A DNA stretch of 5,118 bases, from IMG/VR virus record IMGVR_UViG_2713896781_000020. One strand, given 5' to 3'. The notes beneath the pieces are model-generated. The model worked only from the letters and a program-made list of their open reading frames with translations, did no database searches and had not been told where the DNA came from. Origin of the DNA: a virus (Duplodnaviria; Heunggongvirae; Uroviricota; Caudoviricetes). This document shows positions 38-3,651 of the stretch, in pieces. Made by a program: the position numbers and the translations under genes. Numbering within the stretch: the stretch's first letter is position 1; every line of letters starts with the position of its first letter.

Positions 38-253
38 ATGTACCAGATGGAAAAAATCACAACAGGTGTGTCATACACCACGTCAGCGGTGGGAACGGGC
101 TACTGGTTCCTGCAGTTGCTGGACAGGGTTTCCCCGTCTCAGTGGGCGGCAATAGGCGTGCTGGGGAGTCTGCTGTTTGGGCTGCTGACATATCTGACTA
201 ACCTGTATTTCAAAATCAGAGAGGACCGGCGTAAGGCGGCGCGGGGAGAGTAA
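38..253 (+). CDS. S: Class II pinholin, phage 21 S21-like (71 aa; a second in-frame start at codon 4 would give a 68-aa form)
   Basis: ORF 38-253 with GGGAG about 7 nt upstream of the ATG. Translation [10 protein letters not shown]...[50 protein letters not shown] is recognisably similar, from memory, to the phage 21 S21 pinholin. It has two TMDs, a weakly hydrophobic Gly/Ser/Thr-rich TMD1 and a canonical TMD2, and a charged C-terminal tail. The two Met codons (38 and 47) match the 71/68 dual-start layout of S21. Confidence 0.85.
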
Positions 254-308
254 NNNNNNNNNNNNNNNNNNNNNNNNNNNNNNNNNNNNNNNNNNNNNNN
301 NNNNNNNN
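254..308. other. Run of N (masked or unknown bases, 55 nt)
   Basis: Literal n characters in the sequence. The reading frame of the downstream ORF is open back into this run. Confidence 1.
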
Positions 309-341
309 GCTGAGGCGAAAAAGCAGGCGAAGCAGTTTTTC

Positions 342-953
342 ATGGATGTTGCTGCCGGGTTATGTGAAGGGAACGAACCGTTGCCGGAAAAGCGCCCCAT
401 AATTTTAGAGGCGCAGGATGTGTTGATAACCTACAAAGGAAAGCTACCGGGAAGAATTACTGGTTCTCTGAAGATGCCGCCGTCAACACTGCGGTCAGAA
501 AAAGAGGCGTCTTGTCTGCAGTCTGAGTACTCCATTACGGTTAAAAGTGCCGGAGAGGAAGGAAATAAACGTTATTTTATTGCGTCTGCACCTGATAAAG
601 ATCAGGAATGGGAGTGTAACCGGCCATCCTTTGTTGTATACGGAGATGGCGGGAAAATAACCATCTCAGAAAATGGGAAATTAACACCGCCATCGCACCA
701 GCATAGTGAGGCGCTCATTGAATTTGCCATTGATTACCTGAAGAACAATAAAAAGCAGGGGCTGATGAAGCGCATTGGTCGTTGCATGGGATATCTGCAG
801 GTAGCAGCTGAGATTGAAATGATGGCCAGTGGTGCTGACAATGATGCAGTTGTGCTGGAGGCTCTTCTGCGTGATTTTGATAATACGCCCTTTAAGAAAG
901 CACCTGTTGACTGGATGCAGCCGGGGATGACTTATCTGAAAGGGCGTATATAA
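342..953 (+). CDS. Hypothetical protein, at least 203 aa, unknown function; the true start is probably inside the upstream N run
   Basis: Long uninterrupted ORF on the same strand as the lysis genes, stop TAA at 951-953. The frame stays open upstream from 342 back to the N run at 308 (AEAKKQAKQFF precedes the first Met), and neither ATG 342 nor ATG 474 has a convincing Shine-Dalgarno. I recognise no family or catalytic motif. The segment looks more AT-rich than the flanking lysis genes. Confidence 0.55.
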   Translation: MDVAAGLCEGNEPLPEKRPIILEAQDVLITYKGKLPGRITGSLKMPPSTLRSEKEASCLQSEYSITVKSAGEEGNKRYFIASAPDKDQEWECNRPSFVVYGDGGKITISENGKLTPPSHQHSEALIEFAIDYLKNNKKQGLMKRIGRCMGYLQVAAEIEMMASGADNDAVVLEALLRDFDNTPFKKAPVDWMQPGMTYLKGRI

Positions 954-962
954 GGTGGCTCG

Positions 963-1277
963 TTATCTGTTGCTGGATAATCGACTGAAGATGCGTTCTT
1001 TTTGTGTTTTTGCGTAATGATTGTCCCACTCACAATCAAGGTAGCTTAATTCTTCATTCAACCAGTTATTTATATTGGTCTTAATACGCATAAGCATGGG
1101 CTGTGTTAATGCTCTGGCGATAATGCCGAGAGTCACAGGTGTGAGATGTCCATACGGCTCAGCCTGAATGGATTTTACTGCATCGTGTTCTTGTGGGAGG
1201 AGTAAGAGGCACTCTGATTTTACCCGCTCATTTATGGCTTGCAGGCATAAATCATAATTATGTTGATCGTTATGCAT
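963..1277 (-). CDS. Hypothetical protein, 104 aa, unknown function, antisense to the late operon
   Basis: ORF on the - strand with AGAGGA about 6 nt upstream of the ATG (minus-strand context GTAGAGGATTAACC-ATG). Its stop is only 9 bp from the stop of the convergent 342-953 ORF. No + strand ORF above the track threshold competes in this interval. The region looks AT-rich relative to neighbours. No family recognised. Confidence 0.5.
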   Translation of the reverse strand: MHNDQHNYDLCLQAINERVKSECLLLLPQEHDAVKSIQAEPYGHLTPVTLGIIARALTQPMLMRIKTNINNWLNEELSYLDCEWDNHYAKTQKERIFSRLSSNR

Positions 1278-1405
1278 GGTTAATCCTCTACTGAAATTGT
1301 CAGATATATTTCAGCCATCAGGAAAAACGCCAGTGTCCTACCGCTGGCGGGCTGAAGATTTAACATATCCAGGGATTCGGAACCGATAAATCCTGATAAA
1401 TATCC

Positions 1406-1939
1406 ATGAACACCAAAATCAAATATGGCCTGTCGGCTGCCGTTCTGGCGTTGATTGCCATCGGTGCGCCTGCGCCTGATATTCTCGACCAGTTTCTGGA
1501 TGAAAAAGAAGGTAACCACACAACGGCATACCGTGATGGTGCGGGTATCTGGACCATCTGCCGCGGTGCCACAATGGTGGATGGTAAACCTGTTATTCCG
1601 GGCATGAAACTGTCGAAGGAAAAATGCGACCAGGTTAATGCCATTGAACGGGATAAGGCGCTGGCATGGGTGGAGCGCAATATTAAAGTTCCACTGACCG
1701 AACCACAGAAAGCGGGTATAGCGTCATTCTGTCCCTATAACATTGGCCCCGGTAAGTGTTTCCCGTCGACGTTTTATAAGCGGCTGAATGCTGGTGACCG
1801 CAGGGGAGCGTGTGAGGCGATTCGCTGGTGGATTAAGGACGGTGGCAGAGACTGCCGTATCCGCTCAAATAACTGTTATGGTCAGGTATCCCGTCGTGAC
1901 CAGGAGAGCGCGCTGGCGTGCTGGGGAATCGACAGATAA
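1406..1939 (+). CDS. R: SAR endolysin, T4-lysozyme-like muramidase (GH24)
   Basis: 177-aa ORF. The N-terminal Gly/Ala-rich weakly hydrophobic segment (GLSAAVLALIAIGAPAP) is typical of a signal-arrest-release domain. The catalytic triad E35-x8-D44-x5-T50 (EGNHTTAYRDGAGIWT) matches the T4 lysozyme E11/D20/T26 spacing. Overall it resembles, from memory, phage 21 R / P1 Lyz class endolysins found in Stx-converting lambdoid phages. No obvious Shine-Dalgarno upstream of the ATG. Confidence 0.93.
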   Translation: MNTKIKYGLSAAVLALIAIGAPAPDILDQFLDEKEGNHTTAYRDGAGIWTICRGATMVDGKPVIPGMKLSKEKCDQVNAIERDKALAWVERNIKVPLTEPQKAGIASFCPYNIGPGKCFPSTFYKRLNAGDRRGACEAIRWWIKDGGRDCRIRSNNCYGQVSRRDQESALACWGIDR

Positions 1940-2964: not shown

Positions 2965-3014
2965 NNNNNNNNNNNNNNNNNNNNNNNNNNNNNNNNNNNN
3001 NNNNNNNNNNNNNN
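2965..3014. other. Run of N (masked or unknown bases, 50 nt)
   Basis: Literal n characters. Confidence 1.
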
Positions 3015-3244: not shown

Positions 3245-3304
3245 NNNNNNNNNNNNNNNNNNNNNNNNNNNNNNNNNNNNNNNNNNNNNNNNNNNNNNNN
3301 NNNN
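3245..3304. other. Run of N (masked or unknown bases, 60 nt)
   Basis: Literal n characters. It is followed on the + strand by CGTCGC-TTTTTTTT (3317-3325), which could be the tail of a terminator whose stem is masked. Confidence 1.
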
Positions 3305-3465: not shown

Positions 3466-3651
3466 TTACTTAATTATGTAATTCATACCCGAACTCTCTG
3501 TTGACAGCCTTCTTCTGCAGGCTTCAATAACCCACGCTGAAAAGTTTCCTGAACCTTTCAGATCAAGAGCGATGTTAATTTGTTCAATCATCTGGTTTGG
3601 AAATCGGATGTTGCGGGTTGTTGTTCTGCGGGTTCTGTTCTTTGATGACAT
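3466..3651 (-). CDS. Small ribbon-helix-helix-like putative DNA-binding protein, 61 aa (possibly a YlcI/DUF3950-type prophage protein; family assignment unverified)
   Basis: - strand ORF with GGGG about 8-11 nt upstream of the ATG. Translation MSSKNRTRRTTTRNIRFPNQMIEQINIALDLKGSGNFSAWVIEACRRRL... fits a basic N-terminal arm, a short beta-strand (IRFP), helix 1 (NQMIEQINIALDLKG), a turn (SGN) and helix 2 (FSAWVIEACRRRL), which is the RHH (Arc/MetJ/CopG) pattern. In E. coli cryptic lambdoid prophages a small gene of this kind lies just upstream of the Nu1-like gene, as far as I recall. Confidence 0.6.
   Translation of the reverse strand: MSSKNRTRRTTTRNIRFPNQMIEQINIALDLKGSGNFSAWVIEACRRRLSTESSGMNYIIK

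Follow-up and report, generated by a model that had tools for sequence, protein, structure and literature searches.

A conserved leader marks a slot for unrelated cargo genes beside a mosaic DUF1327 gene in a lambdoid lysis cassette

A 5,118-nt stretch of DNA from a Caudoviricetes virus (IMG/VR record IMGVR_UViG_2713896781_000020; the whole stretch is hereafter called the window) carries, between the lysis genes S (holin) and R (endolysin), two genes that converge on each other within positions 309 to 1405. The late-strand open reading frame (ORF) is a mosaic fusion of a DUF1327 domain to a C-terminal module (C-module), and the opposite-strand ORF encodes a protein of 104 amino acids (aa) from a cargo slot that is marked by a leader. 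The most interesting outcome of the analysis is that this leader is conserved and structured and is common to many unrelated small cargo genes. Overall, the arrangement is read as a noncontiguous operon in which the late-strand fusion gene and the opposite-strand cargo gene are likely functional partners; we assign this reading a rough probability of 0.55.

Gene models and co-inheritance of the convergent pair

The interval 309-1405 is 100% identical to a segment of the Shiga toxin 2 (Stx2)-converting phage 86 (NC_008464, 4155-5251), and identical copies are present in a lambdoid prophage of Escherichia coli O104:H4 2011C-3493 and in many other strains. Over its whole length, the window matches best the O111:H21 strain 15A (L003; compared loci are given L numbers), with 5 mismatches. 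The gene order is S (+), the late-strand gene (+), the 104-aa gene (-), and R (+), downstream of the late promoter region (Table 1). Runs of N in the window are not length-preserving: every close relative (L001, L002, and L003) has 166 real bases where the window shows 55 N (254-308), and the runs at 2965-3014 and 3245-3304 correspond to 20 and 142 in the matching records. ORF lengths and distances across a mask are therefore unreliable. With the 166 hidden bases restored, the S-R distance is 1,263 bp rather than the ∼1.15 kb given in a preliminary description of the window made from its letters alone. That description had placed the region between a phage-21-type pinholin and endolysin, as the profile matches of both flanking genes bear out, and the N-terminal sequence MNTKIKYGLSAAVLALIAIGAPAP of R is similar to that of R21-type signal-arrest-release (SAR) endolysins.

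Table 1 Features of the holin-endolysin junction (window coordinates;. denotes no strand)
Position	Strand	Feature	Evidence or remark
38..253	+	phage-21-type class II holin S, 71 aa	PF04971, E 9e-33; RefSeq 'class II holin family protein'; left junction border
254..482	+	DUF1327/YdfR domain, aa 1-112 of the late-strand ORF	PF07041, E 7e-44; homology with the short EH2201 gene stops at 482
483..604	+	variable linker, aa ∼113-153	disordered in the AlphaFold2 (AF2) model; coiled-coil block here in other alleles
605..953	+	C-terminal module, aa ∼154-268	uncharacterised; phrog_1085 and phrog_26186
954..962	.	spacer between convergent stops, 9 bp	sequence and terminator scan
963..1277	-	cargo gene, 104 aa, WP_000551290 = phage 86 gp06	phrog_1853, small family
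1278..1327	-	cargo-proximal 5' leader	Shine-Dalgarno GAGGA 1284-1288, palindrome, GATGGCTGA, T5 run just after main hairpin
1328..1355	-	core conserved element TCAGCCCGCCAGCG-GTAGGA-CACTGGCG (hairpin), cargo-slot boundary	
1356..1405	-	distal shared leader = 5' flank of R	candidate - strand promoter
1406..1939	+	SAR-type endolysin R, 177 aa	PF00959, E 3e-25; right junction border

The late-strand ORF is larger than the window displays. Its start and first 55 codons fall behind the mask; the full-length gene has 807 nt and encodes 268 aa, with the ATG placed 4 bp after the holin stop in all relatives. The preliminary description had seen the frame open over 342-953 and rightly suspected a masked N terminus, but its minimum of 203 aa undermeasured the gene. 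In the full-length protein from L003, aa 1-100 match PF07041 (DUF1327) with 148.3 bits against a gathering cutoff of 25, whereas the part visible in the window scores only 16.4 bits, owing to the mask. Residues 1-77 are 45% identical to residues 1-77 of YdfR from the Qin prophage of E. coli K-12, where the gene order is essQ-ydfR-rrrQ; the preliminary description was therefore correct in placing ydfR between holin and endolysin, and its view that no known family is recognisable does not apply to the first third of this protein.

The order holin-DUF1327-endolysin is found again in L007, L024, L025, and L026, and part of the junction is matched in 3,137 of 5,426 complete E. coli genomes, mostly by the 5' part of the DUF1327 gene and the ∼78 bp before R. 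This junction is usually filled by a DUF1327 gene, and the expectation of adjoining S and R genes does not apply to this clade; for lysis biology, the S-R junction of the phage-21 type is a variable locus in which adjacency is not fixed. The view of the late-strand ORF as accessory cargo holds only in part: the first ∼112 codons are a routine, conserved DUF1327 late gene, and the accessory portion is the C-module that is fused to them in frame. YdfR is a close known parallel, lying likewise directly after a phage-21-type holin and before the endolysin gene, with a homologous N terminus that includes the RNase E-binding segment 1-72. It differs in being 103 aa long and overlapping rrrQ, whereas here ∼155 additional residues are fused and an opposite-strand gene follows. 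The RNase E binding is reported for YdfR itself, aa 1-72 of which bind the N-terminal (catalytic) half of RNase E by bacterial adenylate cyclase two-hybrid assay and pull-down in a 2026 study that also found YdfR to copurify with RNA (PMC13232886).

Annotation has obscured the fusion. The RefSeq Prokaryotic Genome Annotation Pipeline (PGAP) marks only the first 112 codons, as a pseudogene ('YdfR family, missing C-terminus'), and the same truncated calls ('YdfR family, incomplete') occur at L002 4839-5174, L003 2791-3126, and L024 1415-1756, making them systematic for long DUF1327 fusions; under most of its E. coli genome matches, the C-module is unannotated ('none'). Given the open frame, the signal of selection, and the annotation of the identical ORF as a coding sequence in phage 86, the pseudogene call is an error. 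As a result, a conserved protein, whose nearest cluster (98% identical) has 584 member sequences, is absent from the proteomes of phage 86 and of the 2011 O104:H4 outbreak lineage.

Beyond the DUF1327 domain, the protein is modular. The predicted local distance difference test (pLDDT) score is <50 over residues 70-154, breakpoints fall at 482, 505, and 526 in the linker region, and DUF1327 proteins range from 114 to 333 aa with differing middle and C-terminal blocks, alleles of 162 to 333 aa being mosaic. Conversely, proteins of ∼213 aa bear the C-module without DUF1327. The C-module, present in 787 of the 5,426 genomes and confined to Escherichia, Shigella, and Salmonella, carries a motif, KRIGRCMGYLQVAAEIE, and a conserved tail, PPFK..P..W..PG..YLKxRI, and shows a within-type ratio of nonsynonymous to synonymous substitution rates (dN/dS) of 0.19 to 0.32. 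The tail, conserved yet structurally unmodelled, looks like a binding peptide. Profile searches of the C-module against Pfam and PDB sequences and a fold comparison gave no match, and divergent members of the families matched only 'unknown function' families in Pfam and PHROG. An [ST]HxH pattern was considered as a catalytic or metal-binding motif of the C-module and rejected, as it is not invariant (SRRH in L018).

The 104-aa gene is real as well, and both ORFs are under purifying selection. Its dN/dS is 0.24 to 0.37 with the frame intact across dS values of 0.2 to 0.6. The AF2 model shows five helices at high confidence (pLDDT 88, predicted template modelling score 0.81), and the protein is predicted to be soluble and mildly acidic, with no signal peptide or transmembrane segment (maximal Kyte-Doolittle average over 19 residues, 1.16). 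The family is rare: the gene is found in 95 of the 5,426 genomes and in four phage records, its close homologues form only 13 clusters, all from E. coli, and 20 representatives are present among 1.84 billion proteins. Although the protein matches the last two-thirds of phrog_1853 (profile length, 159 aa), an N-terminally truncated ORF was rejected, since relatives from 99% down to 28% identity all have 103 to 107 aa. Searches against Pfam, NCBIfam, PADLOC, and PDB sequences yielded no match and the fold comparison no specific structural relative, in line with the preliminary description, which had recognised no family for this protein. The literature searched contained nothing on either window protein beyond the YdfR-RNase E work.

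Other elements of that description stand. The 104-aa ORF lies at 963-1277; the two genes are arranged tail to tail with 9 bp between their stop codons, and a scan of 954-962 detected no terminator-like site there. The Shine-Dalgarno sequence GAGGA of the opposite-strand gene lies 6 nt before its ATG, and both ORFs are more AT-rich than the lysis genes (G+C contents of 0.463 for the late-strand and 0.410 for the opposite-strand ORF against 0.546 for S and 0.530 for R).

For all six distinct E. coli and metagenomic homologues of the 104-aa gene that were examined, the location is between S and R, and a C-module gene, intact or as a remnant, lies tail to tail with them at a distance of 9 to 11 bp. 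In the Salmonella prophages L019 and L020, a 166-aa C-module protein without DUF1327 (41% identity; E = 2e-26) and a 105-aa homologue of the cargo protein (47% identity; E = 2e-35) are encoded convergently with 19 bp between the stops, upstream of a Phage_holin_2_3 holin gene and outside the S-R junction; the pair is present again in L023. Co-inheritance of the pair from E. coli to Salmonella makes a functional partnership of the C-module gene with the 104/105-aa gene most likely. The meaningful unit is not a two-ORF insert, as had been proposed, but this convergent pair together with the leader-defined cargo slot.

The states of the junction in related phages bear on how the unit came to be there. 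Stx2_EH2201 has S, a 114-aa DUF1327 gene, and R; its homology covers 5-482 and 1340-2006 of the window in abutting pieces, and the window carries 857 bp more. EH2201 keeps only the 3' half of the leader hairpin (CCACCGCTGGC), and codon ∼112 meets it at an ACCG-type microhomology, a configuration that argues for a deletion in EH2201 and not an insertion here. Stx2_95 retains the C-module but lacks 953-1399 and, with it, the 104-aa ORF; in PhiR5_1, other genes replace 506-1328; and in Stx2_12E129, the C-module and the 104-aa ORF follow an N terminus other than DUF1327. The locus is a mosaic hotspot whose events may have had either polarity, and the direction implied by the word insert is not established: the interval may be the ancestral state, and the short forms look like deletions. 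Compared across relatives, the junction is usually occupied, contrary to the expectation of an empty one, and the 104-aa ORF is indeed present or absent between common flanks.

A conserved leader before unrelated cargo genes

In the leader of the 104-aa gene, a palindrome (CTGAAAT-N10-ATTTCAG) spans 1291-1314, and the GATGGCTGA motif, read on the minus strand, lies at 1311-1319. Of the ∼2,200 matching E. coli genomes, many share sequence 1328-1405 independently of the cargo they carry: behind the shared element, other prophages carry minus-strand genes encoding 79, 86, 91, 96 (DUF1883), and 98 aa, AT-rich and with no pairwise similarity, placed before R or before the holin gene. The element, YTCAGCCCGYCAGTG-N4-6-CACTGGCG, is shared by six unrelated cargo genes. 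Stand-alone 96-aa DUF1883 proteins occupy the slot behind C-module genes at L021 913-1203 and L022 1192-1482. DUF1883 is among the predominant domain architectures of proteins containing Toll/interleukin-1 receptor (TIR) domains (PMC9153377), and this cargo is a weak hint of immunity-related functions.

An exact-pattern scan of IMG/VR for the element returned at least 120 stretches, and 80 loci were examined. An ORF starts 42 to 57 nt (mostly 46 to 51) downstream of the element in all but one of them, and these cargo ORFs form at least 23 families that are unrelated by BLAST. Profile comparison with hhalign relates just 2 of 78 cargo-family pairs (probability ≥50%), neither involving the 104-aa family, and a 'helix-LPxE-helix' motif that by eye seemed to unite the cargo proteins is unsupported by it. 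In 73 of the 80 loci, no reference lysis, DUF1327, or C-module protein was detected nearby; the slot is found there close to terminase genes or among tail genes.

A profile of 56 sequences describes the conserved leader over ∼140 nt. Its three hairpins are an upstream stem (CAGGGT...ACCCTG), the main hairpin, and a second one with the loop GATGGCTGATTA; a -10-like TAAGGT lies between the first two, and an AAGGA Shine-Dalgarno sequence and the ATG follow. The stem of the second hairpin is kept with varied, compensating arms (GGAGG/CCTCT, CGGGGG/CCTCCG, TGCGAG/CTCGCA, TGCCGA/TCGGTA, and ATGGGG/CCCCAT). In the main hairpin, 47 of the 56 sequences have a U.G pair on the cargo strand that would be an A.C mismatch on the late strand, an asymmetry that speaks for an RNA structure in the cargo-strand transcript.

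The canonical leader was found in HK022, HK633, mEp043, mEp213, ES18, SPN3UB, and Oslo, with coordinates, for example, of L031 6130-6287 (-), HK022 NC_002166 13980-14128, and ES18 NC_006949 18095-18230. It lies before HK022 gp23 ('srb; moron gene product') and ES18 gp25 ('possible moron'). Each of these genes converges on a neighbour, gp22 in HK022 and gp24 in ES18; the latter is a DUF1327 protein (30.7 bits) encoded between gpM and gpL homologues. The annotators of ES18 marked part of the leader as a putative terminator of gene 24. DUF1327-like genes outside lysis cassettes are located at L148 (ES18) 2243-2503 and in L038 (a 76-aa minus-strand ORF, 5473-5703 in the reoriented locus). Such genes lie among tail genes and converge with cargo behind the leader, so that DUF1327 and the cargo slot are associated in more than one genome region. 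Taken together, the leader, the small gene behind it, and the DUF1327 gene on which that gene converges make up a mobile moron unit of tail operons and of the lysis cassette. The recurrence of DUF1327 as a neighbour, with a prototype that binds RNase E, points to a possible connection of moron expression with RNA decay.

The window leader is a divergent variant, with a T5 run and without the canonical GATGGCTGATTA-loop second hairpin. A candidate promoter, TTTATC (1385-1390)-N17-TATGTT (1362-1367), would start transcription with the first nucleotide of the core element; it agrees with the consensus at only 7 of 12 positions, too few for the scan threshold, and its -10-like hexamer (TAAGGT/TATGTT) is conserved in the 56-sequence profile. 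The predicted RNA fold of the window leader occludes the Shine-Dalgarno sequence (minimum free energy, -24.3 kcal/mol; z = -1.88). The hairpin and T5 run were also considered as a terminator upstream of the 104-aa gene, which is disfavoured relative to a leader because the T run is missing in the Salmonella and canonical leaders.

A search of L003 against Rfam 15 gave nothing overlapping the leader at E values up to 1, and no description of it was found in Rfam, the inspected record annotations, or the searched literature. At canonical loci, the only nearby match, sub-threshold and on the opposite strand, is to isrK (L042 102-183 [-]; 22 bits against a gathering cutoff of 50; E = 0.93), which was treated as chance. 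The leader offers a sequence handle with which to find small, probably lysogen-expressed cargo genes in lambdoid prophages. It is from this class that proteins acting in superinfection exclusion or against phages have come, HK97 gp15 and Tai among them.

Known systems and competing explanations

The moron concept reportedly goes back to Juhala et al. (2000). Under the definition in PMC3594210, the 104-aa gene shows three of the parts: extra DNA, deviant G+C content, and opposition to the late operon. As to the first, the gene is present in 95 of the 5,426 genomes and its flanks are present in thousands, and breakpoints are mapped against EH2201, Stx2_95, and PhiR5_1. A downstream terminator of its own was not detected, the convergent stop being 9 bp away. 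The earlier proposal of a horizontally exchanged, moron-type cargo gene directed against the late operon is borne out: the gene is rare and AT-rich, occupies a swappable slot, and shares its leader with HK022 gp23 and ES18 gp25. The gp23/gp22 pair of HK022 and the gp25/gp24 pair of ES18 (NC_002166 and NC_006949) resemble the window unit in having the leader, a small gene against the late operon, and a convergent late-strand neighbour, as well as a lower G+C content and a present/absent distribution; they differ in lying between tail genes rather than inside the lysis cassette, and their cargo proteins are unrelated to the 104-aa protein.

The lambda gene bor, a small opposite-strand gene by the lysis cassette, is classic lysogen-expressed cargo. 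It resembles the 104-aa gene in size, in its direction against the late operon, and in its place at the edge of the lysis genes, but it encodes a sequence-unrelated lipoprotein downstream of Rz, whereas the 104-aa gene lies between S and R and its product has neither signal peptide nor transmembrane segment; phage 86 has a bor-like gene after Rz. The nearest functional model is the phi80 locus, in which taiEcA lies on the opposite strand, is expressed constitutively in the lysogen, is lowered by Q expression, and has its product neutralised by that of the late-strand gene atiEcA (He et al. 2024, PMC11364771). As in the window, an opposite-strand gene interrupts the Q-dependent late operon beside a small late-strand gene, both being moron-type loci of lambdoid prophages. 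Unlike the window pair, which converges, TaiEcA (204 aa) is encoded divergently from atiEcA; in phi80, moreover, the locus precedes the packaging genes and has no leader element.

If the two window genes are indeed partners in a noncontiguous operon, the following mechanism can be proposed. The late-strand gene, closely packed behind the holin gene for translation, would add a DUF1327 late protein joined through a disordered linker to the C-module. The opposite-strand gene would be transcribed in the lysogen from its own leader, comprising the candidate promoter, the 5' hairpin at 1328-1355, and the structure near the Shine-Dalgarno sequence. After induction, the Q-antiterminated late transcript would cross the opposite-strand gene in antisense and damp its expression while the late-strand protein is made. 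By analogy with Tai/Ati of phi80, the two products could act as effector and neutraliser, with a likely role in phage-phage conflict or host modulation.

Several observations weigh against this reading. The genes are separable, the C-module being present in 787 genomes and the 104-aa ORF in 95: Stx2_95 has the C-module without the cargo gene, in L009 the 105-aa gene is intact and its late-strand neighbour decayed, and in L021 and L022, C-module genes converge with a DUF1883 gene instead. The minus-strand scan found no sigma-70 promoter with at least 9 of 12 consensus matches upstream of the 104-aa gene, and no terminator was found downstream of it, including on the minus strand within the late-strand ORF. 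The T5 run after the main hairpin of the window could terminate rather than lead transcription, the single-sequence fold z-scores are weak (-1.88 and -0.84), and the search pattern itself dictated the arms of the main hairpin, so that its conservation is partly circular and a covariation test uninformative. Neither window protein is homologous to TaiEcA or AtiEcA by blastp (E > 0.1), nor is any of 79 cargo proteins; no PADLOC-DB 2.0 defence-protein model matched either window protein at E values up to 0.1, and no fold or family match was obtained for the C-module or the 104-aa product.

The separability of the genes is also what the strongest competing explanation builds on. Here, the two genes would be functionally independent occupants of a recombination hotspot, and their pairing would reflect the shared ancestry of a DNA block. 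Their unequal occurrence, the two cases of one gene without an intact other, the DUF1883 and other cargo behind C-module or DUF1327 genes, and the 73 leader loci at which none of the reference proteins was detected nearby are all consistent with independence. Linkage alone, however, poorly explains why the pair is kept at 41 to 47% identity in Salmonella, at another position and beside another holin family, and the conserved C-terminal tail of the C-module looks like a binding peptide. Independence is a serious alternative, but we consider it somewhat unlikely.

Alternatively, the opposite-strand unit might act mainly as an antisense or interference regulator of the lysis cassette, setting the S:R ratio or timing, with DUF1327 modulating RNase E-dependent decay and the encoded protein secondary. 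The convergent overlap, with 9 bp between the stops and no terminator, the leader hairpin 50 nt before the start codon of R, the binding of RNase E and possibly RNA by YdfR, and the lowering of Tai by Q expression in the analogous phi80 layout are compatible with such a role. It is nevertheless improbable, as the 104-aa ORF is under purifying selection at the protein level and has a confident fold, the leader also precedes cargo among tail or terminase genes, at a distance from any lysis genes, and most prophages with this lysis cassette have no minus-strand gene at all.

A toxin-antitoxin or toxin-immunity module would fit two small adjacent genes co-inherited across genera, and the constant N terminus and variable C termini of the late-strand family loosely recall polymorphic toxins; the genes are, however, convergent rather than codirectional, either is often found alone so that co-occurrence is not obligate, Pfam and PADLOC searches gave no toxin or antitoxin domain, and there is no catalytic motif, making this very improbable. 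Decaying junk, with the late-strand ORF a truncated YdfR pseudogene and the 104-aa ORF a chance frame, could appeal to the PGAP flag 'incomplete; missing C-terminus' and to the AT-rich sequence but is refuted by the 268 open codons, the coding sequence in phage 86, the 584-member cluster, dN/dS well below 1 for both genes, and homologues in another genus.

A bolder form of the partnership reading is doubtful: that the ∼140-nt leader defines an undescribed cassette system of lambdoid phages and that the 104-aa protein and the C-module are a new effector/neutraliser pair that acts in phage-phage conflict, similar to Tai/Ati. If so, a shared promoter and structured 5' untranslated region would form a portable expression platform, possibly also a recombination handle, that serves dozens of unrelated small prophage-expressed proteins encoded in antisense within late operons, and the DUF1327 partner would tie the unit to RNase E-dependent RNA turnover.

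Accessory genes elsewhere in the late region

Variation is not confined to the S-R junction. The R-Rz interval (2063-2424) contains two small ORFs with hydrophobic segments (60 and 43 aa in RefSeq; WP_001151822/3 and WP_001280932), just downstream of a strong hairpin with a T run at ∼2029-2062. Phage 86 has an ant gene at this position, which makes the R-Rz junction a second variable slot. Within Rz, an ORF embedded in the +1 frame (2605-2832) has a lipobox-like signal consistent with an Rz1 o-spanin and has no RefSeq annotation in L002 or L003. In the Salmonella prophage L019, a ParE-toxin/helix-turn-helix pair and a DUF4406 gene (1569-2269) lie between Q and the lysis genes, so that accessory genes are densely packed behind the late promoter. 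Finally, a 61-aa YlcI/YnfO-family gene (3466-3651, minus strand) runs against the late operon of the window between the lysis genes and the small terminase gene; it lies in a very AT-rich stretch (G+C content, 0.33 to 0.43) and is another moron-like gene.

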